This document shows positions 10,315-58,561 of a stretch of DNA of 64,000 nt, one piece after another (the first letter of the stretch is position 1; each line of letters opens with the position of its first letter). A model generated the notes under the pieces. It was not told the origin of the DNA. It worked only from the letters and a program-made list of their open reading frames with translations, and did no database searches. The stretch lies in NCBI GenBank assembly GCA_051294905.1, contig CM119371.1, forward strand, positions 8,682,001 through 8,746,000, written 5' to 3'. A program made the translations under genes and the position numbers. This stretch comes from Botryllus schlosseri. Its lineage: Eukaryota.

Positions 10315-12899
10315 TCATCCACATTCTTCGGACTGGTACTGGGTCGATCCAACCACCTGAGTGAGGTTGGACACGCTCGTTGCACCGTTGTCGGAATCTT
10401 CCAGATAGCCCAACAGAACCATGAAGCCCCATATAATCAACGGAATGCATGCGCATGTCAACGCCACCTTCAGAACGAGCCAAGTACGCGAATTCAACTC
10501 GCCTTTAATGCTGCGATTGATCTTGTCATGGCGAGTTTTTTCGCTGATTGCGTCATCTGAAATAAAATGTCGCGACTGAAATATAAGCACGAAACGTTGG
10601 ACATTCGAAGTTTACCCCTTCCGACATTACCAGTCGCACAACACACTACATCCCAAGCGTCAGACAGCTCATATCAAACCGATACCAGGCGCTACAGTTA
10701 GAGTGCAGCGTGTACAATATGAGCTATGATCCAATTGAAGTGTGATATTTTATGTGGATACTGCGGCCGGTAACAGAATAAAAAATTGACCATGGATATT
10801 TTTCATTCAGGGAGACGTCTACTAACATTGCGGGAACAGCTGCGTACAGTGCAAATGTACATATAATCATGGACACCCGAACGATGAAAGTCGTGTTAAC
10901 ACTACTAACCCAGGCGGCTACTTGTCACTGAAGCAATTGCGCCATAATCCGGGCTGCTTAGACCTTCTTTGATTGTATTCTTCAATTGAGCCTTGGAGCT
11001 GCTCGAGCCATCCAGGACTCCCAAATCATTAGCCTCCTGGTTGGCCTGCTTCGAACTTCTCCCTTTGCCTTTGATTGTCTTCTTTTCTTCCAGTACACCT
11101 TGTGACATTCGAAGAATCGATTTACACAATGCCACAGCGACAATACGAAAATATTGAATATAGTTGGCATGGTGTGTTCGTAACCAAAGTTCTAAAATGT
11201 CCAAAAAATCGAGCAGACGGCACTCGCCGTACATTTTTCGGCTCGTTTGTACCGTGGGCCAAGGGCAAGAATTTAGCACGATCCATTTCAAGTGACGCCA
11301 TGATTAGTCTTAGCGATGAATGACCTAGGCATCTCCATATTGAAAATGTTATTGGATATTAATGAGCGCATTATATCCTAATGGCTACGCAGTGCGCTTC
11401 TGCGATGAAAGTTATCAGTGACCTTCCTAATTAACCACCATGGAAGAAACGATAGACCACATTGACGCTCTTCAACTATAGAAAGGAGTCAGCAGGGTTG
11501 TAATCAAGTCACAAGGCTCCGAGTCACAAGTCACTCTCACTTTTATAGTTTTGACTCGAGTCAATTCGAGTCAATTTCATTTCGTCCCCGAGTCAACTTC
11601 GAGTTCAAATCATTATGCAGAGGTTTGAGTCCGAGTCATGGGATAATGACTCTAGTCCGAGTCAAAGTCATTGTGTTGACTGCTCAGTTTCCAGTTACAG
11701 TCTTGTTAAACCCACTGCTATAACCCTATTTGGTGATATCGAATGGTTCTCATTTATAATACACTAATTCCCCTCACTCCTAATAGTTTCTGGTCGCCTT
11801 TTCAAGTACCAGTACCAATAGACAAAGCCCCAATTGGGTGGTTACTTTTCCATTCTTCAAAATTACAATGAAATGTCGGTCGTGGCCGTCTGAGTCTCGA
11901 GTAATATGACTTGGATCGAGTCATGCGCAATGACTCGAGTCCAAGTCGAGTCAATACACATATTGACTCGAATCGAGTCAATATCCGTATGTTTAGAAAA
12001 TGACCCGAGTCAGGATTGTTAAGTGACTGGCGACACAATCGAGAACTCCAAAGAACGTTTTGTACAAGATTGGGCGACATGGAACTATGTAGGAAGAATA
12101 TATCAAGTGTATAATGAATGGATCGGAACGCTCACTTACACCGGTAGCGTGCATTACAATTTTTGCCATGAAACAAAATGAATCGGCGTTACCGTCATTC
12201 GGATTCTTCTCAAGCAGGTCTCCGTAAACGACGCTCATATCTGGGGACGCGTAGTTGCAACCCTTTCCAAGTCTTACAGGCAGTCGTACACCTTTATCGC
12301 CGAATAGATCACACGCCAGATCATCCGGAACCTCCACTAAACAAAGTTTTGAATAGTGATTAAACATACAGGTTTGAACCGAGACGAGACAATATTTGAT
12401 CAATCGCAGCGTTAGGGCTTACTTGGCGAGGGTAACTGCGCTATGGAAACGCACCCAGTCTCGAATAAACTTGCATAGAGTTCAATAGCTAGTCGAGGCC
12501 TGGACAAAAGTCCGAACAGAACGATAAAACCATAATTTACACGGTCACAGCCCTGTAAAATAAGACATCTCTAGCCCTAGTAAAATTGCACTGCTGACGG
12601 TGACGGCCCTATATGTCAAATAACACTGCTGTTCCAAGGAATGTATCAGCAATAATGAGACCAACGAGCTTGCTTGAAAATCAGATTGACACTGTTGGGG
12701 TCAACAGATATAATGTCATATGAAATGTGGCAATTGGTTATATTATACATCTTCGTCGCTTTACAGACATCTGTAACCTATCGATATTGATCGTCTTACC
12801 ATCACGACCTGGAACAACGTCGTATCCGTCACCGCGGTCCTGTGCTGGATTGCCATGGCAAAGCTTGCCGGCAGATTGCTTCTTGGAGCTGATTGGCAT
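10315..12899 (-). CDS. Paralog 1 (most divergent) of a type-II single-pass membrane protein family with cytoplasmic ITIM-like motif; 4 coding exons, ~224 aa
   Basis: Exon A 12899-12800 (ATG; MPISSKKQSAGKLCHGNPAQDRGDGYDVVPGRD, donor G|gtaaga). Exon B 12336-12193 (tttag|, 144 nt, ...DMSVVYGDLLEKNPND, G|gtaacg). Exon C ~11098-10910 (acceptor uncertain; ...EANDLGVLDGSSSSKAQLKNTIKEGLSSPDYGAIASVTSSRL, G|gttagt). Exon D 10556-10315 (tttcag|; DDAISEKT...TM LVLKVALTCACIPLIIWGFMVLLGY...NLTQVVGSTQYQSEECG*). All junctions are phase 1 and homologous to the other three copies; AATAAA lies ~490 nt downstream. Confidence 0.7.
11493..12010 (+). mobile_element. GACTCGAGTC-family MITE copy (3'-truncated) in intron B-C of paralog 1
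   Basis: Begins CAGGGTTGTAATCAAGTC; colinear with 1093-1610. Confidence 0.8.
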
Positions 12900-13362
12900 T
12901 CCTTTTGCTCCGAATCGATTATCCCCTACGATCGATACTTACCCTTTATCAAAATGATGCGAACGGGAGCTTCACCCTGACTTATTACAACGGTAAGCCT
13001 GCGGTAATCCTGTAAATAGACGTCACGATTACCGAAGTTCTGGTGCGCGATGCCCGCACCATCACAAACCTGTTAAATGAAAGCCATTGATGGACGCCAG
13101 CAAATAAATAGTCAACCAGACGATAATGGGTTGATGATCATGAAACGGAAAATTAACCACTGATTACTGTGTGAGACAGTCGATGTTTCACGTAAATATA
13201 CGATTGACCTTTCGTATCCTATCACTCTGTATTGACCCCACATTGATGACCAACTGATGTGTTGGGCTCGGCATAACGACGCATGTACTCGAATGCGATT
13301 GTATTCTAAAGAACATGGACATAGATGAACATGAACAGCCCCTTTGATCAAACGACGTTATG

Positions 13363-15906: not shown

Positions 15907-16095
15907 ATGAATGATTGCGCGGGCCGCTTCGGTTCTTGGTGAGATTCTATAAAAAAAAAGGCGTCATTAGCTAGCTACTTTTAGCTAATTTGATGGGTTC
16001 AAGGGAACTAATAACTGTGCTCATATGTTTTTATGCATATGCTTGCTACGCACCATAATCGGTAATATATATGTTATGAAACATGTGCTTGTATC

Positions 16096-16735
16096 TAGGG
16101 CTGGTCACAATGATTCGATTTCTCGAATCTAAATCGAGTCTTAATTTTATTAATTCGAGTCGAGTAGTGAAATACGATTTGTTCGAGTATTGAAATTATA
16201 CGCTCCTCGTCACCGAAAGTTACTTTATCAATCAGAATTATAGTTTCGATACTAATTTTCTCTGTTCAACCCTTGAAACTTTGACTGGTCGTATCGTAGC
16301 ATGCGAGACATATAGTGCAAGCTACGATCAATCAATAAATCAGGTTTATCAATATATTCATCGTTTCAAAACATCACAAGACTGCGATACAATGAAAAGA
16401 TAGGAAGGTGTCGAAACAACTGGGAGTAGCCTATAAGATCAGACACCCACCGCGCTACTGGAAATAGCACATTTTCGAAGTCATGATTATCCCACAACAT
16501 TGTCACCAAGTGCAATGAAATCGGTATTGTCGAAAAACTACTAAAGTATCTTTAATGTGATGGATAACAGGCATTATATTCTTTGTGGTCGTATAAAAGG
16601 TACATATTTGAACCTTGACATATTACATTTTGTTATATGTCATAATGAGTGATACTCGATTACTCGACTCGACTCGGAAGCATATTCCGTGATTCAGAAT
16701 CGAATCACTCAGGAACTCGATTTTGCCCAGCCCCA
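16096..16735 (+). mobile_element. hAT MITE, TAGGGCTGGGC family
   Basis: TIRs TAGGGCTGG/CCAGCCCCA, perfect TSD cttgtatc. Confidence 0.9.
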
Positions 16736-26111: not shown

Positions 26112-29100
26112 CTACGGGCTACCATTGACCCGAAGCTCAGGGACCGTGTCGCGAGTAACATGCGTTAGAAGCCAAATGACCAATGCGATCATGAGAGGGG
26201 ATAAGCCAATCAACCCCAAGACAATACGCTTCTTCATCCTAGGCGATATCATTTCGTAGAGAGTGAAGCAGCATATCAGTCCCCAGAGTGTGAAGCAGCA
26301 TTCACCAACACACGTCCAACCAGGTCCATCATCGTTGATCATGTTGGGGTTAGCTCCCTCGTTATCACGGTTATCTTCTGGTAAATGGTCATCTGAAACA
26401 GTGACCCGGATGTTGGAAAACAGCAAGGTGGGGTCATTTCTACAGCGAGTCACCAGGCAAAATTCATAATTTGAATCTACTATCAGGATTATGAATTTAG
26501 CCAACACCACACATGCCATGAAGCCTATCAGAGAACTCGCGCGACACGAATGATCGACCCGAATATTAGTACCTACATATGTAGATTCAAAGTATTGGAT
26601 TCAATAATCGCATACCACACGCACGGAACCGCGCGTTCCAGCCGCCGTTATCAAAATGCACAAGATATTTTCACGTCCGATCAGTGTGTATGCAAGTCAA
26701 CGAATAAAAACGCTCCACAGTACAGGTAGTATCAACTTTTCTCGGTTCCCCGAAAGTCAGCATGTTTGCATTTCCTAATAACTGTCCCCAAGCACGTACA
26801 GTAGGCTATTTATCTCCCTGCGATTCTGGTAGCCGGCTGAAACTGGGCAGTCAGTTACCAGTATGAGATACCCTGGTTCCGAGTTCCATAGTCGATTCGA
26901 AGTATCAATTTAGCATTAAAACACCCCGAACAAATATTTCGAGCAACTTGGGAGTAAACGTTTGGCGTTCAGCCAAATCGCACAACTTACCTGATATCAG
27001 CCGAAACGGTCGGATATTCCAATGCACGCGATATCAACATCAATATTAGTCGAACTAGCGACCATCTACTTTAAAATCTGCCACACCGGTTGGACAGTCA
27101 TCGAAGAACACCACGGCGATGAAATTATTTTATGAATACCATTTACCATTGTGGCGACTAGTCGACGCCATTGCGCAGTCATCCTGTGAGCTTCCTGCTT
27201 CGTCTTTGATTGCCTTCTTGGCTTCGTCTTTGATCGTCTTCTTGGATAAAGTCTTGGATTTGACACCGTCCTCCAGAAAACCTGAATCATTGGGTTCCTC
27301 GTAGGGTCCAGACATTCCGTCTGTAACGATAGTAAAAGAAATACTATATTTACCGCCGTATGTTCAACGTTACCAATGTCGTATTCCTGGCATCCAGGCA
27401 AGGATATTCTGACGCTTTTGTGCGTGCACCAAGGGAAAATATCTGGCACACTTCGGGAAAATAGTGTATTCTCATCAGAAAATAGCTATCCGATATAGGA
27501 ACCTACCTCACGATTATACGGAAGTATAATGCGAACTATTTTACCACAACTGATGCTCGACAAATTAGAAGACGTCGAATAGAGCATGAAGGAAGGCGCG
27601 CACGTATGTAACGTAGGCAGGTCGGATTTACAACAAATGCTTTACGCGACCGCCATTTCCACAAATTAGTCAAAAGATTATAAGTAGGGCCATTCAAAGT
27701 CATTGTCATTCTTTTCCATGTCATTTTTTCTATGTATCAGTAAGTCGAACAATTTTAACGCAAAAACACGTCGTGAAACCAATTTTAAAGCAAAAACCAG
27801 ATCCCCACGAGGTATATTACGAAAGTTTTAGTCTTATAAAGTCATATTTTACTAGTTAGATCGTATACCAGCCTTTCAAGTAATAAGATCGTCTCTGGAG
27901 CACTCATCACCCATACTTGTTTTGATCGTCTCTGTGGAGCGCTCATTCTCCTTACTGAAGTCATTAATACGTCCAAATCGTACTACAAACACTATTTACA
28001 TTTCTAAAGTCGTTATACGTCCAAATCGTAACTTCAAACACTGTTTACATTCCACACTGCTACAACAGTGGTTTGAAATGAAAATGGATGTGTATTGCTG
28101 TTATGTTGCGTGTGTTTTAATATTTTAGTTCCATGAGTGGCGTTGTTCGCATGTAAAAATACATGATCTTCACATGCAAAAATACATCATTTTAACATGT
28201 AAAAATGCATGGAGTTTCACAGAAGTCATATAAAGTCATATTTTCCAAAAATTTAGTCATATTATCGATTTTTGAAGGTCTTACAAAATTTGCCCGAATT
28301 AATAGTATGAAAGATTGGACATGTAAAAGACAGACGAAAATGTCAATTGATAACGCTGATGACTAACTTTCAGTTATGGTATAAGTAAACATTATTTTTG
28401 TCACAAAGAAATGCTGTTCAGCCGCTGACAAGTCCAGCGAGATATTATATAGTCACACTGAGATCGCGGATTTCGAATTCTGTAGAAGTTCTATTTTCGT
28501 GAATCGCCTTTTTGGGTGTCGATGATCTTTTCTGTAAAATGTAGGCGGGTAATGGAATCCATTGGCATAAAACCACAGGATAATGGGTAAGTATTTCAGT
28601 AGATGGCCCTCTGCTTTCAGAAAGATTTTTAAATACGCAAGCAAACGAGCATACATACACTGGCGTGTCATTTCTTGGTCTTCATACCTCACGAGCTCAG
28701 GGATGAGAAATGACGAGGTAGCAACTTGGACTCAAGTCGCAAGTAATGACGTCGAAATGTCAGTGTCGACAATTTAACGGTATATTAGCAGACTTCACCC
28801 ATTGGATATGTGCCTCTGTATTAAGGAGGGAGCTAGTATACGCGCCTCTGCAGTAAGCACAGGTCAACATAAAATAGACTACCACGGCATGGACATCTGC
28901 CTATCAATGGCAAGCGTCAGAATGCAAACGAGGAGCGGCCAACAACTTCCTGAAAACGTTTGCGAAGATCTATAGCGTCACGGAGTTATTGACGACAATG
29001 ATCGACGTTGAAATCGTATATCGATATGATGTTGAACGTAACGACCACTCCCACCAGCAACATGCACCTACAATATCGCCGAAGATAAAAGATAAATTAC

Positions 29101-37074: not shown

Positions 37075-37080
37075 TTTATT
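37075..37080 (-). terminator. Polyadenylation signal (AATAAA) of paralog 3
   Basis: Same conserved context as 25608 and 53745. Confidence 0.6.
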
Positions 37081-37649: not shown

Positions 37650-40600
37650 TCAGCCTCTTCCTTCGGGCTTGTACTGACCTGATCCAACTCCCAGAGTTTG
37701 ATTGGGCAAGCTCGTTGAATCCGGGTCGGATTGATGAGGACCGCGCAATAGAAGCCACACGATCAATCCGATCACGAAAACGAATGATCCTACAAACGCC
37801 GCCACAATGCACCTCACCTTCCTAGGCGATGCGCAGAGTGCGAAGCAGCATTCATCAACACACGTGCCATCGGGTTCATCATTGTTGAGCAAGTCGGGAT
37901 CAGTTTCCTCGCTATGACGGTCATCTTCTGGAAAGTAGTCATCTGAAATAATAACCAGAATGTTGGAAATCAGTTGAACTACAGCGGGTCCCAAGGCTGA
38001 AATTATAATTTCAATCTAGTAACACCACGCATGCCTATCCCGTCTTCCCTACATCTCTATAGATTCTACGCATATATCTGTTTTGAGACTAGGATTATAT
38101 AATCTCATATCACACGACGCCGCGCATCTCAGCTGCCGTTAACAAGGTGCATAACATACTATCACGACCCATTCAATACGTCTGCAAATCCCCGAATAAA
38201 AACGTTCCAATGTACATGTAGGAATAACTCCCTGCGATCCCCGAAACTCGGCATGTTCAGTCCTCGAAAAACAACTGTCCACAGTATATGTAATATTAAC
38301 TCTGCGATCCCTGAAACCGGGCAGGGAATTACCAGTTTTGGATACCTTGGTTCGGAGTGCCATAGTCAATATTATTGCGGTTTCGAAAGCGTGTCAGTCT
38401 TCTTTACACGCGATATCGATTTAGTGATACAACACCTCGAACATAGTTTGATCAACTTAGAGTCAACGTTTGACACCAGACTGATGATGCGACCCGCAAC
38501 ATAGACGAGATGGGCATAGGCGTACGACAGGCCTGGTTGAGTGCGGCCCGCGGGCCGAATCCGATCCGCGGAGCTATTCTGTGCGGCCTGCGAAAGGTTG
38601 CTTGAAATTGAAAATATAGAACCTACTTTTTAATGTTGCTGCGTGGACTGAAACCATAGGATGTATAAACTGAGCCGAAAGTTCGTTTACTATCAAGTCT
38701 GTTCATTAACATACCGCGATTACGCAGGCTTACGTACCTCACGTGCCTAATCCTGATTCAAAGTGAAGTCAATGTAGCAAATTATGCCGTTACAATTAAA
38801 GTCACAAGTCCCCGAACCTTTTTTGTTGCCATTGCCACATTACGAATTACACGGCCTGCGTTTCAAATTGTTACGTGATGTTGTTCCAAATCCCTAACAA
38901 GTCAATCACTGCCCGTGATTTCTATGAGTATATCACCACCCATAAACGATGTAAAAAAAAAGAAAGCCGAAATTGGAAATTCAAACATTGTTCGGAGCAC
39001 TAAATATTTGATTACTACCAGTCTTTTTAGTAGTTAGTGCCAAGCACGTCGCCGTGTTCAAGGAAGTATTATTTAAGTCGCTTCTACGACTAAAACACGA
39101 AGACATAGGGCCTACACTCGATCAATGGACAGCAAATTTTGGAATACCTGCAAGCTTGGCTTAACAACAAGTACATTGCAGCAAGCTGCACACTTCTCAT
39201 AATTCAGCCACCAAGACAAAAGGCTTTACAGGATCCCCAGGACCGTAACTGTGGCACCCAAACCCCCAATTGGGGAGGGGAATCTCGAAGGGCGCCCAAA
39301 ATTGTTTCGTGAACGACCAAAAATTAGAGAGTAGTTTTTGAATATTTATGCAACTTCTTACAAATTTTTCTCGGGCTAGGCGCGATTTCGAGATCAATGA
39401 TTATAGAATTGGGTATTTCGGCGTAAGCCATTACCGCGCCATGACATACCAAGATATATCAAGTGCAGGCCAACACGGTATTCCGAGAAGGCACGGCAAT
39501 TGCAACTGCTGATCAAATTAAACAAGTAAAAGCTCGACAGCGAAAAAGCCTTGGCCCAAAAGGACTGTCCTCATGTAGACCGAAAACCACGATCTCCAAT
39601 GGTCCGTAGGCATTATTTTCAGGTGACGAAATATCAATTGGGAATCGTGCATGTGCGATTTCTAGTTTAGTATACGCTTTGACAATTCCAATATATTTCT
39701 CATTTCAGACGTGAGGTTACGAAATAACAACATCTAACGAAGTAATTATACCTACAGGTCCTCTCGAATATTTCCATGACAGCACCTCACTCTGCTCTAG
39801 CGGTAAAACTGAGTACGAGGGCATAAAGAGGTTTAAAAAATATAGCTATATATATATGACATTCCCAATATTATTGACCTATTGAATCCTGAAACATGGA
39901 AAAATTCCGCGTTTCGCGCGGTTCGGGCATAAAACGTTGCCAAATAGTGTATATAAGAAATCTCGCTCAGGAGTAATGTTAAAACATGCATCATGATGGG
40001 TCTGGTCTGACGGCGAAGCTTTCAGTTCAGAAATAAAACCAATACGCTGGAGAAGACAGCTAAAATTTATCGCCCCGCCAACATATTTTCTGCTTCTCAT
40101 TTGACCCGCGGAGAAAAATAATACCTCTGGCGTACAGAAAAGAAGTTAGGTCGCTACCTCATAATCAGCCGAACCAGCAGGATATTCAATAAACATGATA
40201 TGTACTTCCATAACTAGCCGGGCATCCAGTGATAAACATGGTGATGAACTTAATTTTATAAATACCATTTACCATTTACTATAGTCGATGCCATTTCGCA
40301 GTCATCTTGGGATCTCCCTGCTTCGTCGTTGATTGTCTTCTTCAATATGGATTTGTATTTAACCGCGTCGTCCAGAAATCCTGAATCATTTGGTTTCTCG
40401 TAGGGTCCAGACATTCCGTCTGTAATGGTAGCAGAAGCAAGGCCATTAACCTTTGCATCTTTCAACAACGATAATGTGGTATTCCTGGTACCCAGACGAG
40501 GAGGAAGTAAGACTATAGAGGTTTAATCCGAGGATTTATGGATACACCAAGGGATAAATTTCCGACACACTTACTGAAAATGGTGCATTCACGTCAGAAA

Positions 40601-43600
40601 ATGGGTATACGATATCGGAAGCTACCTCACAATTATACGGGAAATAGAAAGCAAACACATTTTAACCGAACTGATGCTTTGACAAAGTGAATGGCCAAAA
40701 ATTGAGTATGAAGGAACGTGGGGAACGTATGAAGAAATATTCACGTAGGCCGGTTGGATTTACACCGAATGCTCTACATTGCATTCATATCCAAAAATTA
40801 GTCAAAATAATACAAGTACGAGGGATTGATCAAGTTCAAGGTAAAAATGTCAATTGATGATGTTGATGAACTCAAACCATGCAGCCGCTGACAAGCCCAG
40901 GGAGATACTCTTTCCGCTGGAATGGGAGAGTGTCATAGAATCGGTTGGTATAAAACCAGAGGGTAATGTGAAAAGCATTTCAGTATATGTCCTGGTGCTT
41001 TCAAAAAGATTTTCAAATACGCTAACAGTCGAGCATACATACACCCGCGTGTCGTGTATTTCCCCGTCTTCATAACATACGATCCCAGGGATGAGAATGA
41101 GTCAGGTATCAACTTTACTACGCGACGTATTTATTATCGATTGTGATGAAGTCAAAATGGAACGACGCCGAAAGCCAGTATCGAGAATTTAACGGCTTAC
41201 TAGGACACCTCACCCACCGGATATGTATATCTGCATTAGCGAACATTAGATACCCGCCGCTGCAGGAAACTCATCTCATCAAATACAGACTACCGCGGAA
41301 TGGCGATCTGCCTATAAATGCTTATCTGTAGCAAAGAGTCATAATGCAAACGAAGAGCGGCCAACAACTTCCTAAAACCGTTTGCCAATATCTAGCATCA
41401 CGGATATTGTAATTGTAGATGGAGATTGAGATTGATATGGAACGTAACTACCACTCCTACAACTAACATACACTTAAAATTTCGCCGCAGAGAAAAAAAT
41501 ATAAATTGAGGATACCATCTTTCTGATTCTTGTCCATCAGATCTCCGTAAAACACGTTCATTTCCTTCGGTCCAGAGTTGTTGTCCTTCATAGATCCCAC
41601 AGGCAGGTGTACGACTTTCTCATCGGTTTGTTTACGGGGCGATCCACCCAAAAGCATCTCTGCAAAGTAAATGTTTGTACGATTTCAGCAATCGCAACTT
41701 TGCGGATGGCTTGGCATATCCACGCCTCGAATAAATGTATGCATGAAATCTGAATACGCGCTTTGAAGGAAATTGCTAGTCCAAAGAGAGCGGGGTTATA
41801 TATACATGATCTTTCGCGTAATTGCAAAAATGGAATCTTGCAACTATACGACGACACCGGCAGTTGTTTGTTTGTGATATTCGTGTTGTTTGTCGACTGC
41901 TATGTTTATCAACACCATGCCGATATCCTTCATTTTTATTCTGTACACTCTTAAAAACTGGGCCCACCTTTAAAGGTGTTTCAAAAAAAACCTTCAAAAG
42001 AGGAGGGAAATTTTCTACCTTATCTCACCTGGTGGTTATTTTCCCACCTCATCATAAGATGGGCAACTTTCCACCTTGTCCTATCCGGATTCGGCTTCAT
42101 CCTACCCGGATATCCTCGAGGTACAGCATATAAGCACACTTTAAGCTTTCACAAAACACTAAATCACCTTCATTCCAATGCCTTTATTTGCAAATTAGTC
42201 ACGAATGTGATCCAGTTTGGCATAAGCTGCAGTACTGATGTCTTTTACACCTGGCAAACGCGCCAGAAAAACTGACATGACAGTCAGAAACTGCATTTCG
42301 AAGATCCAACGAATTTCTAGCATCACTGAAAATGCCTCATGGAAGCTCTCGATATTCTTCACCTTTTCAACATCAAACCAGACGGTCCACTCTTTCTTCA
42401 TTGTATCGTAGCAAATTGTAGGACACGCGGATGTGGGTGTCTTAACGAAATATATTATTATGTGAAAGAAGCATCAGGTCAAACATACGCTTAACACACA
42501 CACACAGACACACACTGATGTTATTTCAGTAATCAGCTTATGAAATATACCGGCAGCAGGGCACTGCGGATCCTATTTTCAGTCAACATATGATATCAAA
42601 TAGCAAATAGGCATATGTATATGCGGACTTGGCCAGGTGGAAGTGATGACCATTTTGAGTCATCAGCTAATGTGAACAGTAACCTTTGTGGCTCTCAATT
42701 TTTTGTCGGTGCGGACCCTTTTCTTAACCATCAAGGCAAGGCATCCGTACAGACACCCCTTAAGTTTTAGTTCAAATCATGCTCAATAATAGTGCAACCG
42801 TCATCCACCTCTTGTCAATAGTCCTTTTTTTGCAAGTTGCAAAGGTACATCTTGGCGAGTTTGAAGTAGCAACCTTGGATAACTGCTGATATCTACTTTT
42901 TGAAACTACTTGAGTACTTTGCAGCCCTTCATTTCCTACTTGGTTGAAGTAGCTTTGACATGGATTTGAAATCACTACTTCTACACTATATACTAACCTA
43001 GAAATATCCGAAGTGATGCTTTACCCGAGCTAAGAAAATCACAAATTATATTATCATTCAGGTTAAAAATTTAGAGGTCTGCAAACACCATAAAGATGTG
43101 CTTCACGGACCCAGAGTTAGCACTGCGGGTTGTGGGACCGAGCTGAAAAGGGAGCATGGGCTTGTAACACCGGTTTTAGGTTTGCTCCTCACTAAAAAAG
43201 GTTGAATACACCACATTGAGAGAAATGTATTGATACTATAATTCAATAATTGATATTATAAAACGTAATTTTCAGTATTTAAAATTGTCTCCGAATCTCC
43301 ACGACTCGACTACAGTTGAAGCTCGATTTTGTGCCAGTAGTGGAATAGTTTTATCCATCCCAAATTTCAAGCTAACAGGTATATTTATAAAAATCCGTAC
43401 CTGTTGAACCTGGAAGAAATTGCCACATCCTTCATGAAAAATTGTAGGTATAGAAACAATCCGGTCTAGATTTTGAGATGCTGTAAAACAAAATATATTA
43501 TAAGTCCAAGTTGATCACTGAATACATACAGGTCAACATCAACTCATTACAATACAGCAGAGTGGAGTGCGTCAACGCGTCGCGTCGTAATGACGGATTA

Positions 43601-46600: not shown

Positions 46601-49532
46601 TTCTTATCTATGGATTTGTACCTTCGTCATCATGATTACTTGGCAACGGCAAATTTTTTACCAATCTAGTGTTTTTTTCGCCAATCTAGTGTTTTTTCAC
46701 GACATAATCTTGTGTTTTTCCAAGAACCTAGAGTGGCAACACTGTGAACGAGGACGACGGCAGGTTCCTGCAAGCGAGCTGCAGAAGTGTTTGTTTTCGA
46801 ATTCAGTTGTTCGTCAGAGATTGATTCTTTATACTGCCTGTTCATCAGCCATTAGGTTACTTGATACCAGTTGTCAGGATGACAGAAGAGCGAGGTGTCG
46901 GTGTTGTTGCAGAGGTACCGTAACTGGTGGTTCTGATTTCTGCTGTCATTTGGAATGATTGTGTGGTGAGGTAATGTATGAATATATGCTGGCATGGTCA
47001 ATTAGTCATGTTTATGATTTCGGAAACACACTGGAACTAAAGTACTACCGGTACTCTCTGATTGATTGCGCACATCATCATGCTGATTATATAATAATAT
47101 TTATATTTCCTATTCATTGCTGTGCTGCTTTATCAAGTGATAATTTTGATTGATTCAATAATTTTGTTTGATACATGGCTGTTCTGTGACTCCTTACTTC
47201 TTGTCAAAATTTAGTATCATTCTTCAGGAGTATTATGGTAGGAGGCCTAGTGGTCTCGGCCAAGTCACAGTAACACAATATTTAATTTTGTTGTTGGCAT
47301 CAGCAATGCATCATGGCATGCCTGGGTTACTTATGTTTACCCTCTCCGTAAAGCAACTAATATTGCTTTCTCTATTCTCGCAGTCTTTTTATCTTATTTT
47401 CCCTGCCTAGTTCCTACCACTTGCATTTATATTCAAAATATATACCGTACCTAAGATTGATTTGAAATTTAATATATATAAACCCTTTTAAGGCATTTGT
47501 TGATACTAATTTTTTGATTATAATGTTCATATCTGTTTTGCAGGCTATATTTATGTGAAATAGCACTAAAGCAATAGCAGGATTTTTTTCGGATCCTAAT
47601 TTTGTTACTCAGCTGTCGGACTCCGAAATCCTATTTGACTGTTGGATCAGGACGGATACAGATTCCCCAAATCTGGAATCCACCCATCTCTGAATTCAAC
47701 TCATCGTGCTTTCACTTCCTCTTTTGCTTTTGGCCTCATTGGCGGACGGACTTCTAGTAGCCTAAAGTCTCTGCAGCTTTGTTTAATCGTGTGTGATCAA
47801 GTATAGACGGAGGTTTTTACAATGGCGAGCACGCTAAAACCGTTACTTCATTAATTTGGCTGCAATTCTCAAGATTCCTGGACAGTAACGGTATGCTGAA
47901 AGATTGGCAGAAATTCGATTACGGCATTGGCTATCTGAACCGATTGAAGAAGCAGTTTTGCATCAATATGAGCAGTTTGAAGACTTGACTGGCTGCTTCA
48001 CTTCATAATAACTGTTTCACTGGCTGAACTGATGTAACTTGACTGGCTGCTTCACTGCATAATAACTGTTTCACTGGCGGAACTGATGTAAGCGCGCGTG
48101 GAAGGGATGGAGCTTGTGTCTCTCCCGGTCCGGTAATTCTCCCCGTGATGTGGCGCGGCGTTGTTAGGGTTTTAGTTTAGGGAATTTGTTCATTGATGTT
48201 AGTTTGGGGCTAGTGTTCTGCTAATGTGGTGCGGTCATGCCCGTGTTTGCGGTTTTGTTGATGATTTTAACTTTTTTATGGTATTTTGTGAGACTGCTGC
48301 TATAGGCACTTTTCAAGTTCGATCGGAATAGTGTAGCAGCTGTGTTCTATACTGTTCCTTACGTCAGTTGTAGTATCATCGCATCGTGCTTTCACTTCCG
48401 CTTTTGCTACTGACCGCTTCGGCGGACGGACGTGTAATAAAGTCTCTTCAGCATTTTTGAATCGTGTGTGATCATGATCAACTACAGATGGAGGTCTTTT
48501 ACAATTATGCATTCGCATTCAGATTCATTATCAGGTGATAAAAAATGTGGTTGAAGGCGAGATCGATAAGTCAGGCTGTAGTCCTGTAATCATGATCTGA
48601 CTATGGTATTGATTCAGTATAAATTGTGTGTATTTTGATTTGAATGTGGACCTGTTCCATAACTGTCGGAGCTGTGCAGATTTTCATAAATTATAAAAAA
48701 TAACTGATTTCGAAAAACCTGGAAATCGAATTTAATTACACTGAAATTCCGGACATTTACGGGCGTATGTAGCAACCCAAACATTAATAAATTTCCGTTG
48801 CATGACCAATCAGCTAAGCAGAACTCGTCAACTTACGCGTACTTCATCTGACGCCATGTGTTCGGACTGCCGTCCCAAGTCATAGGGGGCTCGTTCCGCA
48901 GCATTTGTAATATTTCACGGGTTTACCAAAAATAACGTTACGACAGCTTTTGTATATTTGTTGACGACGACGCAGTATATGATCTCGCGCGAAAATACAT
49001 CTTCCACCTCCCAAAACCCTCCTTATAAAGTGATGTATCGTATATCACTTTATAGGAGAGTTTTGGGAGGTGGAAGATCTATTGTCGGAGGTGGGAAGAC
49101 GTACTTCACCGAGGTGTATAGCATGTTCCTACCTCTCGTGAAAGGAGGAATTATCGTTTCCACCTCAATTTTAGCAAAAAACCCACCTTTATTTTTTACA
49201 GTGTAACACCGGCAGTTAACATTCTACATATCAGCGTACACGATCGAATGGATCGAGTGAAAGAACTGTTCGAGGGGAGACCAACTCTGAATAGCACGCG
49301 ATGTGGGTAATCCACAGTTCGTGACATCACACTTTCGACAGTGCAGACAACAAGTTATTCTACCGAATAAGATCAACGAGTAGCCTATAACTTTACACCC
49401 AGACTGGAAATCTATACTGAATGTCTCACCATCATCGTTATCTGGATTATTGAAGGATCCGTCACCGGTGCCTTGTCCAAGATTACCACGGTAAAGCTTG
49501 CCGGCAGAATGCTCCGTGGAGCTGGTTGACAT
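37650..49532 (-). CDS. Paralog 3 of the ITIM-like type-II membrane protein family, 4 coding exons, 228 aa; intron 1 expanded by a 7.3-kb transposon
   Basis: A 49532-49430 (MSTSSTEHSAGKLYRGNLGQGTGDGSFNNPDNDD). B 41659-41516 (...EMNVFYGDLMDKNQKD). C 40419-40273 (DGMSGPYEKPNDSGFLDDAVKYKSILKKTINDEAGRSQDDCEMASTIVN). D 37942-37650 (DDYFPEDD...TCVDECCFALCASPRKVRCIVAAFVGSFVFVIGLIVWLLLRG...NQTLGVGSGQYKPEGRG*). Canonical cag/gt sites, all phase 1. Confidence 0.8.
38528..40129 (+). mobile_element. hAT non-autonomous element in intron C-D of paralog 3
   Basis: Left end CAGGCCTGG..GCGGCCCGCGGGCC, degenerate right end, TSD gcgtacga/gcgtacag; absent from the same intron of paralogs 2 and 4. Confidence 0.7.
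44137..44656 (-). mobile_element. TAGGGCTGGGC-family MITE nested in the CACTA-like element
   Basis: TIRs and TSD gctactag/gctacaag. Confidence 0.85.
45674..46744 (+). mobile_element. Internally deleted hAT element with dimerisation-domain remnant, nested in the CACTA-like element
   Basis: TIR CAGTGGTACCACTC/GAGTGGCAACACTG, perfect TSD tgaacgag, CTAGTGTTTT subterminal repeats, peptide KFPLLGKLITNLLALPHSTACVE. Confidence 0.9.
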
Positions 49533-51421: not shown

Positions 51422-52507
51422 ATCTATAGCATGAGACATGGATACGCATCATTTTTGACAATTTCCAAGTTCTGGACAACCGTAGCAAACATCTACATAT
51501 CCGTGAGAATATAAACGCATAAACTATATTCGTTCGATTTAAATCATACAAGAGGGATTTTAAAGGCGATCGCTGTGCAATGTAAGCACAGAATCGTATA
51601 ATAAAAAGAGATACGTTGCTGTTAGATTAATCTACTACGAAGACGGCAACGTAGATGTGAGCATTTCGTTTGCCGTCAAATTATTTATAACAAGGAGGGT
51701 CAGTGAAACGTACAATCAGTGAATGAGTGATTGCTCTCACAAGTGACACTGGCGTATCGCGAACAATCCGTTCATATTGAAGATACAGTGATTTAATCGA
51801 GAGTATTTACTTGATGATTTGAAATTGATCCATAAATTTTCCTTCAAGTCTTGAGTCAATTCACATTTCTGCAGCGCCGAGTTAAGTCAAGCCGAGTGAT
51901 TTTTGTAAAGTGACTCGAGTCAAGTTAAGTCATACGAAAAATGTGACTTGAGTCTGACTGGGGTCAAGTCATGACTCTAGTCATCCCAACACTGCAGTCT
52001 ACCCACATCGATACCTGCATTTGCGAAATATCTGTTATGCGGTAGGCTGGATGCCATATCAGGGCACACCGTTACACACTCGACTCTGATAACGAAATTA
52101 CCATCACGCTAATCATTGAGACGCTATCAAGAAATTCGATGCAGTGCTAGGAGTCATACAAAAACACCGTAAAATTCAACAAAGAGAAATATCGACTTTT
52201 CTGTTAATTACTTCTGAAGAAGGATCGAAAATACCAACCACTCCAAGTAATTCGCACGTAAAGTCTCAGTATCCACACCAGCATTGAATAGACACCGGTA
52301 CGATACTGTGATTTCTGGAATACTTTGGTTCTTAACCGGCGTTCAATGGTACACCAGGGGATTGGTGAAACATTCCCAGGGGCTCCCTTCAAGTCAAAAA
52401 AACAAGCTCCCCTCCTACATCTGATTGGCAATGACACGTCATCATTGGATGCAGTCATAGGCGCTATCAGCAGTCGTCTTTTCAATGCCGTGATGGCATG
52501 TCGAGAC

Positions 52508-53022
52508 TAGGGCTGGGCACAATGATTCGAGTACTCGAATCTGAATCGAGTATTAATTTTAATGATTCGAGTCGAGTCGTAAATGACGATTTTTTCGAGT
52601 ACTGAAATTGTACGCTCCTCACAACTGAAAGTTAATGAACTAACGAGAATTATAGTTTTGATAATCTTTGCCACTGAGGAAGCATTGAAACCTTGATTGG
52701 CCGTGTCGTAGCATGATAGACATAGCACAAAGCTACGAACGTTACTGGAAATAACACATTTCCGAAGTCATGATCGTTCCACAATATTGCCAAGAAATGC
52801 AATGAAGTCAGAATGGTCGAGAACATACCTAAGTATCATGTATGTGACGGGTAACAGGCATTATGTTCTTCGTGGTGGCATAAAAGGTACATATTTAAAC
52901 TTTGACATAGTACATTCTGTTGTGACGTCATAATGAGTGATACTCGAATACTCGACTCGACTCGAAGCATTTTACGTGATTCAGAATCGAATCACTTAGG
53001 TACTCGATTTTGCCCAGCCCTA
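52508..53022 (+). mobile_element. TAGGGCTGGGC-family MITE
   Basis: Perfect TIR and TSD gtcgagac; the paralogous site at ~24730 is empty. Confidence 0.9.
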
Positions 53023-53744: not shown

Positions 53745-53750
53745 TTTATT
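53745..53750 (-). terminator. Polyadenylation signal (AATAAA) of paralog 4
   Basis: Same conserved context as 25608 and 37075. Confidence 0.6.
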
Positions 53751-54329: not shown

Positions 54330-57300
54330 TTAGGGCTGGTGTTGATCTGATCCTACCCCCGATCTTAGTTGGGCAGGCTCGTCGATTCCAAAACTGACCA
54401 ATGCAAGCCAAATGATCAATCCGAGCACGAAAACGGCTGCGACTCCCAACACCACCGCAATGCACCCAATCCTCATAGGCGATTCGCAGAGTATGGTGCA
54501 GCATTCATCAATACAATTCTCGTCAGATCCATCATCGCTCCTCAAGTCGGGGTCAGTTTCTTTCCTATTACGGTTCTCTTCTGGCAAATAGACATCTGAA
54601 ATAATAACCTGAATGTTGGAAAACAGCGAGTCACCAGTCACACCAAACGGACACGCATGTTCGACCCGATTATTCGTACCTACATCTGTGGAGCCGAAGT
54701 ATACACCTGTTTTATGACTACAATCGTATAGCACACGACACTGCGCGTCCTAGTGCCGGTAACAAAGGTTCATGAACATTATTCTCACGCCCTATCACCC
54801 TGTACACAAGTCCCCGAATAAAAACGTAACACAGTACATGTGAGTATTGACTCTGATCCCCGAAACTCGGCAGGCAGCTACCAGTTTGATACACCCTGGA
54901 TCAGAGTGTCATATTACCCAATATTGCGGTTTCGAAAGCGTGTCAGTCTTCTTCACACAAACGATATCAATTCAGCATTAAAACATCCCAAACATATTTT
55001 GACCAACTTGAAGTGACCGTTTGACACCAGACTGATACTGTGATCAGCGACATGGACAAGATAGGAACAGTAGTATCACAACTTTCCTCATGTCAGCCGA
55101 AAATTCATTGAAGCTGAAGTAACAAACTGGCCTCGTATAATCAGCCGAAAATTAATTGAACGCGATATGTACTTCCATTATCACCGCTCCAGTCGGACAT
55201 TCAGTAAAGCACACTACGGCGACGAAATTAATTTTATAAATACCCTTTACCATTGCGGCGACTAGTCGATGCCACAGCGCACACATCCTGTGAGCTTCCC
55301 GCTTCGTCTTTGATTGTCTTCAATCTAGTCTTGGATTTCACCGCGTCCTCTAGAATTCCCGAATCATCGGTCTCCTCGTTGGGTCCAGACTCTCCGGCTT
55401 TAATGATAGAAAAACCAATGGATTAACCACTGCTTCTTGAACGTTGAAAACGTCGTATCCCTGCAACCAGACAAGCGGGAAGCTATGTACTCTTACCTTG
55501 GGGAATTCAACCCAAGACTCGGGAGGTTTAATCAGACGGAAATCAAGCGAAAAAATATCCGGCACACTTAGTGTAAATAGTGTATTCACATAGGAAAAAG
55601 AATACACAATTTTGGAATCTACCTCACAATTATTACTTTATTATACGCGGCGTATTTATTATCGATTGTGATGAAGTCAAAATCAACGACGTCGCGATGA
55701 AATTGTCGACAATTTAACGGCTTTCTGACACACTTCACCCTCTCGATACGTGCATGTGCATAATCGCACATTGGATAGGCCTATCTTAAAATCGACTACC
55801 ACGATATGACAATCCACCTATCTACAGCAAAAATTCGTAATGAAAACGAAGAGCGGCCAACAACTTCCTTGAACCGTTTGCCAGATGTAGCGCAGTGATT
55901 CTCAAGCTTTGACCTCGCGGCACCCGTTGGAAAAGAAAAATAGTTTGCGGCACACCATCACATTGGTTCTTGGTTCTGAACTTTTTTGGTTTACGGCAGA
56001 CTGCGGAGTACATGTTTATTACTCGCCAGTATACAACACACTGATTGCAGGCTGAAGCCTTTAGAAAACAAACGGAAATAATATTACAACACTCTTCACT
56101 GCGATCAATCAACGTATTGTTCAAAACTGAACTCAGCCTTCTAGGCACGCGATATTACCGGTATAGAGTGAATTCAAGGGGTTGTTTGGGGCTGGGCACA
56201 ATGATTCGAGTACTCGAATATGAATAGAGTGGTAATTTTATTGATTCGAGTCGGATAGTAAAAGGCGATTTTTTTCGAGCACTGAAATGACACGCTCCTC
56301 GCAACTGTAAGTTAATTTACTATCGAGAAGTATGGGTTTGACAGTATTTTCTACTAACGAAGCCTTGAAACCATGATTGTCCGTGTCGCAGCATACGAGA
56401 CATAGTACAAAGCTACCAACGTTACTGGAAATATCACATTACCGAAGTCGTGATCTTCCGACAACATTCCAGTGTTGGGATGACTCGAGCAATGACTTGA
56501 CTCGAGTTACCTTTTTCGCTTTTTCGTGCGACTTGACTCGCTCGTATTAGAAATGTGGATTGACTCGGTGACTCTGAGCAAAATTCACGAGGTAATTTCA
56601 AGTCATCAGTGTCGTTAAAATTCACTTTAACTTGCATATGTTCGGATTGTTCGCGAAACACTGATGGAACACCCGAGAGCGACCAATAATTCATTGATCG
56701 TACGTTTTACTGATCCTCCATTGTTCTCTTACGCTATCGCTAACTAGTATAGTAAAGTAATTTATTACAAAATGTCTATTTCTGTTCTATGTTATTACCT
56801 TAAACAAAACCTCGTTCTAGTGAAATTGAATTCGAATATAATCGATCCTCAACCATTGGCGCAGGCTCAAATTGTATCATATCAATTTGCAAATGGGAAA
56901 TTTACGCGTATTGTATCTTATCAATTCCTTTCTCTATTCTCTATTTGGCCGTTAGCTATAAACTGAGACTATGCAATTACTTACGTAGTCCTATACGTAT
57001 ATGTGTGCGATACAGCGCCATCTTCCGTGTATATTCAACTCAAAATCAATGGTCACTCAAAATCTGTATTTCAGACAGCTAGCAAAATGCAATGACATAA
57101 TCATACCACATACTTCGAAAAGGCGACTTGACTTGAATTGTGACTTGACTTTGACTCGAGTCACCCCAAAAAATCAAGCGACTTGACTTGACTCGAGTCA
57201 ACGTCGACAATCGATTGACTTGGCTTGACTCGAGTCAAAATGTGCAATGACTCGACACTGAAAGGTAGTGAGTTGAATCCAATACTGCAACATTGTCGAG

Positions 57301-58561
57301 AACTTCAATAAAATCGGTATGGCCGAAAAAATACCAAAGCATCTTCAATGTGATGCATAGCGCATCCAGTGTATTTTTTGTTGTGGCATAAAAGGTCCGC
57401 ATTTGAACTTTGACATAATACTCGACTCGGAAACACGCGATTCAGAATCGAATCACGCAGGTACTCGATTTTATCCAGCCCTAGCTTTTGATTGCGGCCA
57501 TAGCATCAATTTTGATTTATCAAATGTACATACTTCACGTAAGTGGTACTCGATATTATCCAGCCCTAGCTTTTGATTGCGGCCATAGAATCAATTTTGA
57601 TTTATCAAATGTACATACTTCACATAAAGCTCGATTTAGATTGACAGTTTGCTATAGATTAGAATTGTTTTGCGCCTAATTTCAAAATTCAGAAAAGTTC
57701 CCTCGCGGTATACTTGCGAGACGTAAATGGCACACTAATGTGCCGCGGCACAGCGGTTGAGAACAACTGATCTAGCGTCACGGGGTGACGGTTACAATGA
57801 TTGACGTTGCAATTGTAGATCGAGATGATGTGGAACGTAACGACCACTCCCACCACTAGCATGCACTCGCAATTTCGCCGAAGAAGGAAAACACATTGGA
57901 AATACCATCTTTCTGATTCTTCTCAAGCAGATCTCCATAAAAGACGTTCAAATCCTGTGGTCCAGAGTTGTTGTCCTTCGCAGATCCCACAGGCAGGCGT
58001 ACGGCTTTCTCATCGGTTTGGTTACGGGTCGATTCATCCAAAAGCATCTCTATAAGAAAGGATTTTGAGCCATTCCAATTGCAACTTAGCGGATGGCATG
58101 GCATATCGACGCCTCGGATTAAATGTATGCATGAAATTTGAAAAGCGCTTCAAATGAAATTGCTAGTCGAAAGAGAGAGGCATTACATATACATATCTTT
58201 TTAATAATTGCGAAAATGACATCTTGCAACTATACCAGAACACCGGCAGGTAACATTATACATATCACCGTGCACGGTCGAATGGATAGAGTGAAAGAAC
58301 TGCTCAAGGTAGTCAAACTCTATTGGAGTCCAGCGGGTTATCCACAGTTCAGGACATCATACTTTCGACTTTGCATGCAGACAACAAGTTATTCTACCGA
58401 ACAAGATCAACAAGTATAACTTTAAACCCAGACTGGAAATCTATACTGAATGTCTCACCATCATCGATATCTTGATCATTGAAGGATCCGTCACCGGGGC
58501 CTTGGCCAAGATTACCACGGTAAAGCTTGCCGGCAGATTGCTTCATGGAGCTGATTGACAT
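54330..58561 (-). CDS. Paralog 4 of the ITIM-like type-II membrane protein family, 4 coding exons, 219 aa
   Basis: A 58561-58459 (MSISSMKQSAGKLYRGNLGQGPGDGSFNDQDIDD). B 58049-57906 (...DLNVFYGDLLEKNQKD). C 55397-55251 (aag acceptor; AGESGPNEETDDSGILEDAVKSKTRLKTIKDEAGSSQDVCAVASTSRRN). D 54595-54330 (DVYLPEEN...NCIDECCTILCESPMRIGCIAVVLGVAAVFVLGLIIWLALVSFG...HQP*). All phase 1, open throughout. Confidence 0.8.
55893..57769. mobile_element. Charlie-type hAT MITE in intron B-C of paralog 4, containing two further nested MITEs
   Basis: CAGTGATTCTCAA/TTGAGAACAACTG, TSD atgtagcg/atctagcg. Nested TAGGGCTGGGC MITE ~56187-57483, itself containing a CAGTGTTGG element 56470-57287 (TSD caacattc/caacattg). 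Confidence 0.85.

Follow-up and report, generated by a model that had tools for sequence, protein, structure and literature searches.

The minus strand of a 64,000-nucleotide stretch of the Botryllus schlosseri genome (the window, meaning the whole stretch analysed) carries, between positions 10315 and 58561, four paralogous genes in which an A-B-C-D exon unit occurs five times in all, a real and apparently orphan gene family with a well-supported gene annotation. The explanation favoured here, with moderate confidence, is that of a lineage-restricted tandem family encoding tail-anchored, single-pass proteins of 219-349 aa that act as a membrane-tethered docking strip. Specifically, an invariant V-x-Y-G-D-L would be read by a cytosolic partner, with assistance from the nearby D-D-E-M-L-L, Y-E-E-P and D-S-G-F-L-D-D; either an SH2 domain (once the tyrosine is phosphorylated) or a clathrin-adaptor subunit might fill that role.

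The gene models were rebuilt independently of an earlier annotation made from the letters of the DNA (hereafter the sequence-only reading), and their ends are the same as those it had given (gene 1 stops at 10315 and gene 4 starts, with its ATG, at 58561). Within the 64,000-nt window, tblastn located four paralogs of exon D; exons A, B and C are present in five copies each, and there are no further copies of the family (the remaining tblastn matches all had E > 0.1). The sequence-only reading had described four A-B-C-D paralogs; the tandem paralogy on the minus strand holds, but gene 2 has six exons and is a fusion of two units. The array is unevenly duplicated. In the four models, every one of the 15 introns is in phase 1 and has a GT donor and an AG acceptor at aligned positions, the spliced ORFs (224, 349, 228 and 219 aa for genes 1-4) contain no internal stop, TE-like repeats lie both inside and between the genes, and an AATAAA (identified as a motif only) occurs 488-580 nt past the stop in each of the four genes, all of which agrees with what had been read from the sequence. 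Rfam and tRNA scans gave no matches. The features are as follows.

12800..12899, minus strand: gene 1 exon A, 100 nt, ATG at 12899, ending in phase 1, donor GTAAGA
12193..12336, minus strand: gene 1 exon B, 144 nt, with V-V-Y-G-D-L
10910..11098, minus strand: gene 1 exon C, 189 nt, divergent
10315..10556, minus strand: gene 1 exon D, predicted transmembrane (TM) helix with no preceding Cys cluster, TGA ending at 10315
9822-9827, minus strand: AATAAA of gene 1, motif only
31598..31700, minus strand: gene 2 exon A, ATG at 31700
30965..31108, minus strand: gene 2 exon B, first V-F-Y-G-D-L
29589..29786, minus strand: gene 2 fusion exon (unit 2a/unit 2b), 5′ part of a C exon and 3′ part of an A exon, in frame
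29119..29268, minus strand: gene 2 exon B′, second V-F-Y-G-D-L, donor GTAATT
27147..27320, minus strand: gene 2 exon C′, 174 nt, in-frame insertion of 24-27 nt
26112..26392, minus strand: gene 2 exon D, enlarged Cys cluster, predicted TM helix, TAG ending at 26112
25608-25613, minus strand: AATAAA of gene 2, motif only
49430..49532, minus strand: gene 3 exon A, ATG at 49532
41516..41659, minus strand: gene 3 exon B, V-F-Y-G-D-L, 3′ end confirmed by RNA
40273..40419, minus strand: gene 3 exon C, Y-E-K-P and D-S-G-F-L-D-D, 5′ end confirmed by RNA
37650..37942, minus strand: gene 3 exon D, acidic stretch, Cys cluster, predicted TM helix, 30-aa tail with an N-Q-T sequon, TGA ending at 37650
37075..37080, minus strand: AATAAA of gene 3, 570 nt past the stop, motif only
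58459..58561, minus strand: gene 4 exon A, ATG at 58561
57906..58049, minus strand: gene 4 exon B, V-F-Y-G-D-L
55251..55397, minus strand: gene 4 exon C, Asn in place of the Tyr of Y-E-E-P
54330..54595, minus strand: gene 4 exon D, Cys cluster, predicted TM helix, TAA ending at 54330
53745-53750, minus strand: AATAAA of gene 4, motif only

Exon C of gene 1 also has a second phase-compatible acceptor ~94 nt upstream. Gene 2 is an in-frame fusion with the exon order A-B-[C fused to A′]-B′-C′-D, and its fusion junction falls at an AGCTC stretch that is common to both partners. Since the exons are symmetric (phase 1 at both ends), two units can be joined in frame, thus doubling the motif set. In exon B′ the ancestral donor has been lost and a new donor, GTAATT, lies inside an 18-bp tandem duplication, whose second copy offers an alternative donor 18 nt further on, also in phase 1. 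The locus therefore displays the evolution of such genes in miniature, with a fusion of units and the replacement of a lost donor within a small duplication.

The junction between exons B and C of gene 3 was reproduced exactly by RNA: the joint 40419|41516, which skips 1096 positions and has the ends CT..AC, was carried by five reads with three starts in one of the four RNA runs (X9). This is one of seven predicted junctions within the RNA-mapped stretch, and the other six are absent among the joints listed, so that the splicing deduced earlier is borne out at a single place and in one of four runs, which counts against the docking-strip explanation. Transcript level is low, with a depth of ~1-2x on the exon bins of genes 2 and 3 in run X9 only, and exon C′ of gene 2 has zero reads. 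The bin 36840-37506 reaches a depth of ~5 in X9, which fits a 3′ UTR of gene 3 that extends to its AATAAA. At position 40310 (gene 3 exon C), all ten X9 reads carry a synonymous G>A change.

The encoded proteins begin with a part of ~160-280 aa that is probably disordered. Its acidity, which the sequence-only reading ascribed to the whole family, holds in genes 2-4 (pI 4.3-4.4) but not in gene 1 (pI 6.7), and the same is true of the Cys cluster ahead of the helix, which is found in genes 2, 3 and 4 as C-x-x-E-C-C-x-x-L-[CW] (5-10 residues from the helix, ~20 in gene 2), where it is probably S-acylated, and not in gene 1; the lack of both in gene 1 speaks against a common docking strip. Each protein has one hydrophobic segment, near the C-terminus, with a Kyte-Doolittle value of 2.5-3.0, followed by a tail that is indeed short, although at 14-30 aa its range is wider than the ~20-30 aa given before. 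For exon D of gene 3, AlphaFold2 placed helices at exon residues 27-36 and 39-66, the latter with a pLDDT of 70-86 and the remainder below 50 (mean pLDDT 57).

The first 30 residues include no hydrophobic stretch (maximum Kyte-Doolittle 9-residue value below 0), and in-frame stops 12-13 codons upstream of every ATG leave nothing spliceable ahead of it and hence no room for a hidden signal peptide. With no signal peptide and a lone helix near the C-terminus, the proteins would be tail-anchored and single-pass. In the exon-D alignment Lys and Arg are commoner before the helix than after it and acidic residues follow it, in line with the basic residues reported earlier in front of the single helix; this charge bias and the absence of a signal peptide favour the orientation already proposed, with the N-terminus inside and the tail facing outwards or into the lumen. 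Tails of three of the four proteins contain N-x-S/T sequons, and several more occur in the N-terminal part, which would matter under the opposite orientation and count against the explanation preferred here. The description of the proteins as ectodomain-less is also upheld: the stops are aligned after the short tails, no joint among those listed leads out of exon D, no ectodomain exon was seen, and Pfam detected no partner, lectin or other domain in the 146 window ORFs of at least 75 aa (only sub-threshold P-element remains at 2122-2885).

The best conserved element is the tyrosine motif of exon B, V-[FV]-Y-G-D-L, present in all five units (V-V-Y-G-D-L in gene 1, V-F-Y-G-D-L elsewhere, with two copies in gene 2). 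No invariant run in the five units is longer than YGDL, all five share the Val at −2 as well, and the residues conserved after the motif are L/E-K-N. Other short motifs are less constant: D-D-E-M-L-L stands at the exon A/B join of genes 2, 3 and 4, D-S-G-[FI]-L-[DE]-D is retained in four of five units, and Y-E-E-P reads Y-E-K-P in exon C of gene 3 and has lost its Tyr to Asn in gene 4. The string V-F-Y-G-D-L was not found in the literature searched. Three further interpretations were dropped, namely (i) YGDL as an LC3-interacting region, which has acidic or hydroxyl residues before the aromatic one (the residues before Tyr are N-V-F), (ii) an N-x-x-Y PTB site (gene 1 has Ser in place of the Asn) and (iii) a KASH-type tail (the C-terminal residues are unconserved).

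Motifs of these kinds are familiar from membrane traffic, where YxxPhi is the signal bound by the mu subunit of clathrin adaptors. It is conceivable, if somewhat unlikely, that the proteins are trafficked tail-anchored proteins whose motifs serve sorting and turnover with no phosphotyrosine signalling, YGDL being YxxPhi, D-D-E-M-L-L an acidic dileucine and D-S-G-F-L-D-D a degron-like site, and that they cycle between surface and endosomes or are rapidly degraded. YGDL fits YxxPhi in 5/5 units, D-D-E-M-L-L fits [DE]xxxL[LI], four units keep the degron-like site and acidic clusters flank the motifs. However, all of these patterns are short and degenerate, the dileucine pattern is missing from gene 1, and YxxPhi explains neither the invariant Val at −2 nor the trailing L/E-K-N.

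The sequence-only reading took the tyrosine motif for an ITIM and the proteins for inhibitory adaptors, whose phosphorylated V-x-Y-G-D-L would recruit SHP-type or SHIP-type phosphatases and which would pair with a ligand-binding chain in immune or allorecognition cells. As to the motif, the pattern [ILVS]-x-Y-x-x-[ILV] does fit all five units, within the segment that would be cytosolic, and it includes the Val at −2, a residue not required by a simple YxxL sorting signal; but the pattern by itself also arises in 16-35% of sequences obtained by composition-matched shuffling of the proteins, YxxL is equally of the sorting type, and pY+1 is Gly in every unit, where ITIMs typically have a hydroxyl residue or a non-polar one of small or medium size (Ala, Val, Ser or Thr). 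According to PMC8631942, human PD-1 has apparently the sole ITIM with Gly at pY+1; its V-D-Y-G-E-L is bound when phosphorylated by the SHP2 nSH2 domain, and its Gly weakens SHP1 recruitment. The motif here closely resembles V-D-Y-G-E-L. Two motif copies in gene 2, the high dN/dS and the unequal duplication (both fitting fast-evolving families) would suit such adaptors, as would the juxtamembrane Cys cluster, which resembles the acylation sites of transmembrane adaptors. Against them stand the single conserved tyrosine motif per unit and a window without any partner-like gene; indeed, nothing in the window or the searches speaks for an immune or allorecognition role, blood-cell expression or a partner receptor, and the proposal as a whole is judged unlikely. 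A bolder version, distinctly unlikely, would make this the first reverse-topology, ectodomain-less inhibitory adaptor, in which a PD-1-like V-x-Y-G-D-L on an acylated strip recruits an SH2 phosphatase on behalf of a separate receptor, and which was diversified by unequal crossing-over in the manner of immune and self-recognition loci, the doubled motif of gene 2 being an instance.

The coding frame is under selection, as seen from (i) the identity of exons, 81.3% vs 71.9% in the 200-nt flanks, (ii) gap runs, which number 4.8 per kb in exons vs 21.0 in flanks (~4-fold fewer) and are divisible by 3 in 9/13 cases in exons vs 37/124 in flanks, and (iii) neutral simulations, in which the frame was still open in 6% of trials with 10% of CDS sites mutated and in 0.06-0.6% with 20% mutated. 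Pairwise dN/dS is 0.48-0.85 (1.53 for gene 3 vs unit 2a of gene 2), and by exon it is 1.42, 0.72, 0.32 and 1.18 for A, B, C and D; because these values are high, protein-level constraint is weak except in exon C and the motif islands, which again counts against a docking strip. The dN/dS of exons A and D, close to 1 or higher, the very low RNA depth in a single run and the lack of a homologue in the searches made would also suit an array that is transcribed at a low level with no working protein family, its members being young duplicates drifting to pseudogenes or non-coding transcripts with frames kept open by recent common descent. Furthermore, pS is 0.11-0.14 in exons A and B vs 0.30-0.37 in C and D, and low synonymous divergence of the former may reflect gene conversion and not selection. 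However, none of the four frames is broken despite 20-40% divergence, a rare outcome in the neutral simulation, the few gaps in exons are mostly multiples of 3, unlike those in flanks, and the start codon, all 30 splice sites, stop position and hydrophobic helix are preserved in every gene, making a non-functional array very unlikely. A TE-encoded protein is rejected, as there is no transposase-like domain and there are no terminal repeats around the units.

Homology searches, run exon by exon and not with full-length spliced proteins, detected no relatives, in agreement with the statement that this is not a named family. Pfam gave no family at E <= 1 for seven single exons (including the four exon-D translations), word-index protein searches gave no scoring match for exon D of gene 3 (56 candidates) or the exon-B alignment (725 candidates, and one in a closer search), metagenome scans had no matches, and PDB sequence searches gave a single match, at E 0.47, which was disregarded. 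An exon-D profile searched with HMMER against 1.84 billion representatives matched one protein (P0001, 628 aa, E 2e-5), which was rejected as a relative: only profile positions 61-85, the helix, were matched, in a protein with seven such stretches. The best ESM Atlas score for exon D, 0.80, is a lead only, being below the 0.9 from which this tool counts a resemblance as more than that. The window's own ORFs are absent from the protein libraries, so that it is doubtful how well these cover the lineage, and a lack of relatives is weak evidence.

Comparison with known systems starts from the motif and from PD-1, whose V-D-Y-G-E-L (PMC8631942) agrees with V-F-Y-G-D-L at positions −2 (Val), +1 (Gly) and +3 (Leu) and likewise has an acidic residue at +2. 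PD-1 differs in being a type I Ig receptor in which the ITIM is paired with an ITSM, which is absent here. As in NKG2A and Ly49, which are type II ITIM receptors with C-type lectin ectodomains, the N-terminus would be inside and an ITIM-like motif would lie in the N-terminal cytosolic part, but here there is no ectodomain and the stop comes 14-30 aa past the helix. For exon D, language-model scores of 0.79 for SLC3A2_N (PF16028) and 0.76 for CLLAC (PF15675), both of them single-pass regions with the N-terminus inside, are below 0.9 and leads only, neither being a Pfam match at E <= 1. SNAREs, cytochrome b5 and BNIP3 represent the tail-anchored class, which has no signal peptide, a single helix within ~30 residues of the C-terminus and post-translational insertion. 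The proteins here share with it the missing signal peptide and the lone helix close to the C-terminus, with tails (up to 30 aa) at the long end, although this class is defined by topology and not homology and says nothing on function.

A design of a tail-anchored ITIM protein or type II transmembrane adaptor was not described in the literature searched. The closest in design are LAT, PAG/Cbp, SIT, LIME, NTAL and LST1/A, near-ectodomain-less single-pass adaptors of leukocytes with juxtamembrane Cys and a long disordered cytosolic part that acts through its tyrosine motifs. Small size, a single predicted pass, next to no ectodomain and a long, probably disordered and cytosolic part with a tyrosine motif are common to both, and the Cys cluster of genes 2-4 may be a further parallel, but the predicted orientation is the opposite (the long part precedes the helix, which ends 14-30 aa before the C-terminus), there is one conserved tyrosine motif per unit and the searches found no sequence similarity; to our knowledge, a docking strip N-terminal of a C-terminal anchor is not among the known transmembrane adaptors. 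If translated and placed in the membrane as predicted, these genes would represent a protein family of adaptor-like design without detectable relatives, and if the tyrosine motif is a phosphatase-docking site, they would provide a handle on inhibitory signalling in Botryllus schlosseri.

The four ORFs implied by exon D in a sequence-only reading of this stretch, which had proposed four tandem minus-strand genes (genes 1-4) each made of exons A-B-C-D, are paralogs: when translated and searched back, exon D of gene 3 matches that of gene 4 with an E-value of 4e-26, that of gene 2 with 1e-17 and that of gene 1 with approximately 1e-3. For the upstream exons, an all-against-all comparison of ORF pieces together with a self-blastn revealed five copies, not four. 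Gene models were built from alignments of each exon class, including the flanks, and inspection of the boundaries:

12899-12800, 12336-12193, 11098-10910, 10556-10315, minus strand: gene 1, 224 aa
31700-31598, 31108-30965, 29786-29589, 29268-29119, 27320-27147, 26392-26112, minus strand: gene 2, 349 aa
49532-49430, 41659-41516, 40419-40273, 37942-37650, minus strand: gene 3, 228 aa
58561-58459, 58049-57906, 55397-55251, 54595-54330, minus strand: gene 4, 219 aa

Intron lengths lie between 320 and 7770 nt, with large differences between paralogs, and no additional family exons are detectable in the window. The rebuilt outer coordinates are identical to those first proposed. The tandem paralogs are borne out and sharpened, as are the GT/AG phase-1 splice sites (15 of 15 introns on both counts); the number of genes also stands, but they comprise five exon units (1, 2a, 2b, 3 and 4), gene 2 being a fusion of units 2a and 2b. 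Its third exon starts as an exon C and continues as exon A sequence with the frame kept, and the switch lies at AGCTC, a short stretch common to both exon types. Unit 2a, the upstream half, is nearest to gene 3 (exons 87-92% identical, one flank 95%). Because of the fusion, the whole N-terminal motif set is present twice in the gene 2 protein. In exon B' (the exon B of unit 2b) the ancestral donor has been lost, and a GTAATT within an 18-bp tandem duplication serves instead, again in phase 1.

The mapping of RNA to the predicted junctions had been proposed as a check, and raw reads from four bulk RNA runs labelled as the same species (X9, X11, X13 and X14) were placed on 25501-45500, which contains seven of these junctions (five in gene 2, two in gene 3). 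In X9, the joint 40419|41516 (five reads with three starts, 1096 nt skipped, ends CT..AC, which read GT..AG on the minus strand) coincides to the nucleotide with the exon B/exon C junction predicted for gene 3, while the remaining six were absent among the joints listed for the four runs. Mean X9 depth is ~1-2x in the bins of gene 3 exons B, C and D and ~5x in that of the expected 3' UTR. At position 40310, 10 of 10 X9 reads carry A instead of G, a synonymous difference. On gene 2, X9 has a few reads at exons A, C/A', B' and D and none at exon C'. In the bins of gene 3 exons D, C and B, depth is zero or at trace level (no higher than 0.06) in X11 and X13, and X14 has slight depth in two of these bins (0.28 and 0.56, both strands combined) without a joint. 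By this joint and depth in X9, gene 3 at least follows the predicted splicing, with low expression in one sample. Within intron 1 of gene 3, the region 42176-44900 (minus strand) also has spliced minus-strand reads, with joints 42440|43401 and 43480|43813 in all four runs and 43953|44034 in X13 and X14 only, all three with CT..AC ends. Most reads there are only 90-95% identical and continue into dissimilar sequence, and the repeat at 44137-44657 recurs at 1-181, 16088-16741, 52507-53022 and 56189-56468; these reads probably derive from other members of a repeat family that is transcribed.

Several results favour selection on the reading frame. Comparison of units 2a, 2b, 3 and 4 shows exons to be 81.3% identical (2699 aligned nt) versus 71.9% in the 200-nt flanks (5916 nt), with 4.8 versus 21.0 gap runs per kb. 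Gap runs are divisible by three in 9 of 13 cases in exons and in 37 of 124 in flanks, a count that leaves out all of gene 1 and two pieces cut by the fusion, namely the part of unit 2a downstream of C and exon A of unit 2b; the four odd exon gaps all fall in the tail of exon D, which aligns poorly, and they cancel in pairs. When 20% of sites were substituted at random, the frame of gene 3 or gene 4 stayed open in 0.6% of 5000 trials; simulated frames stayed open in 0.06% of trials for gene 2, in 6% at 10% divergence, and in 0.04% for gene 1 at 40% divergence. By the Nei-Gojobori method, most pairs have a dN/dS of 0.48-0.85, gene 3 versus unit 2a stands at 1.53, and pooled per exon the ratio is 1.42 in A, 0.72 in B, 0.32 in C and 1.18 in D; such high values count against strong constraint on the proteins. 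Synonymous divergence of exons A and B in genes 2-4 (e.g. 41516-41659, 57906-58049 and 30965-31108) is 0.11-0.14, versus 0.30-0.37 in C and D, and lies below that of the flanking introns, which could reflect nucleotide-level constraint or conversion between the 5' halves of the genes.

The longest run invariant over all five units is Y-G-D-L, with the Val at -2 from the Tyr invariant too, and even in exon B of gene 1, which is only 34% identical overall, 11 of the 13 surrounding residues are kept. Conservation extends to the blocks V-[RH]-L-P (exon B) and G-D-G (exon A); D-D-E-M-L-L lies at the A/B join of genes 2-4, Y-E-[EK]-P occurs in units 2a, 2b and 3, and D-S-G-[FI]-L-[DE]-D in four of the five units. 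Our reading is that selection acts on the frame, the hydrophobic helix and a few motif islands, with most other residues free to vary.

An in-frame stop lies no more than 12-13 codons upstream of every ATG, and the AGs in between all have purine-rich surroundings, so that a further coding exon cannot be spliced in ahead of the ATG. A conserved T-rich, acceptor-like stretch ending in CAG/TAG is found ~40-100 nt upstream of the ATGs at 31700, 49532 and 58561 (minus strand), less clearly upstream of that of gene 1 (12899, minus strand), and a donor-like GGTAAGT lies upstream of the ATGs in genes 1-3. A 5' UTR intron or an alternative first exon may account for these signals, which leave the coding start unaffected because of the in-frame stops before the ATG.

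Residues 1-30 are hydrophilic in all four proteins, each of which has one strongly hydrophobic segment near the C-terminal end (Kyte-Doolittle 19-residue maximum 2.5-3.0). For exon D of gene 3, AlphaFold2 with a four-row alignment gave a short helix (27-36) over the Cys cluster and a long one (39-66, pLDDT 70-86), with pLDDT below 50 everywhere else. In the alignment, 1-4 Lys/Arg precede the helix and 0-2, with mainly Asp/Glu, follow it. The established positive-inside rule, together with the lack of a signal peptide and an N-terminal part of 160-280 aa, places the N-terminus in the cytosol by prediction. A tail of just 14-30 residues after the helix puts the proteins in the tail-anchored class; the N-x-S/T sequon in three of the four tails fits a lumenal tail without proving it. 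The structural proposal of an N-in, ectodomain-less, single-pass and unnamed family is supported by prediction. The acidic N-terminal part claimed for the whole family is confined to genes 2-4 (pI 4.3-4.4, versus 6.7 in gene 1), as is the Cys cluster, C-x-x-E-C-C-x-x-L-[CW], which is enlarged in gene 2 and absent from gene 1.

The window (G+C 40-42%, zero N) reads as intron-bearing, TE-rich eukaryotic DNA, with abundant repeated segments on both strands and no tRNA or Rfam RNA in the scans. A Pfam scan of 146 ORFs (stop to stop, 75 aa or longer) gave family-like matches only at 2122-2885 (THAP and P-element transposase HTH, below the Pfam cut-offs), plus three at chance level. Decayed DNA-transposon remains lie at 2122-3590, 4982-5296 and 46245-46955 (all plus strand); two of their ORFs carry a motif that we take to resemble the hAT transposase C-terminal dimerisation region, and Pfam returned zero matches for these two. 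A large inverted repeat (18730-20797 / 22900-24384; arms of ~1.5-2 kb with 83-90% identity around a 2-kb middle), with pieces of the same family at 34177-35302, 50998-51426 and 60595-61314, probably represents a transposon whose terminal inverted repeats are long. A ~305-nt repeat with two 95% identical copies (32272-32576 and 62009-62314) reaches an RNA depth of ~44x in X11 and ~100-240x in the other three runs; its reads enter poly(T) before 32272, i.e. a minus-strand poly(A) tail preceded by AATAAA. It resembles the 3' terminus of an abundant transcript, either retroposed or multi-copy; the Rfam and tRNA scans gave no match to it.

Homology searches for the family were made exon by exon. 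No Pfam family matched its exons, metagenome contigs and PDB sequences held no relatives of them, and word-index protein searches with single exons gave zero matches, in libraries that return not even the window's own ORFs. The sole match among 1.84 billion representatives was rejected as helix-only, and language-model neighbours were sub-threshold only and themselves N-in single-pass regions. These searches hint at genes without detectable relatives, library coverage of this lineage being uncertain. Genes 1-4 are a real gene family, probably lineage-restricted, and are rated of moderate interest.

Regarding function, YxxPhi and acidic dileucine motifs are sorting signals, and a coherent reading takes the Y-G-D-L core as a YxxPhi signal that fits together with the acidic dileucine pattern in a role in trafficking. 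The alternative, that these would be inhibitory ITIM adaptors recruiting phosphatases and pairing with a ligand-binding chain in immunity or allorecognition, is an idea drawn from the motif. The tyrosine motif satisfies the ITIM pattern, yet the same holds for 16-35% of shuffled versions of these proteins with matched composition, so that the weight rests on conservation rather than on the pattern match. The conserved V-x-Y-x-x-L would favour ITIM function, whereas the Gly at +1 speaks against it. The motif is similar to the PD-1 ITIM, V-D-Y-G-E-L, and human PD-1 is, according to an eLife study (PMC8631942), apparently the sole ITIM with Gly at pY+1. There, this Gly 'de-emphasises' the motif for SHP1, and Ala, Val, Leu or Ile at the same position restore SHP1 binding (PMC8631942). 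The Gly at +1 in five of five units is therefore atypical of a strong SHP1 site, though it would be compatible with an SHP2-type site.
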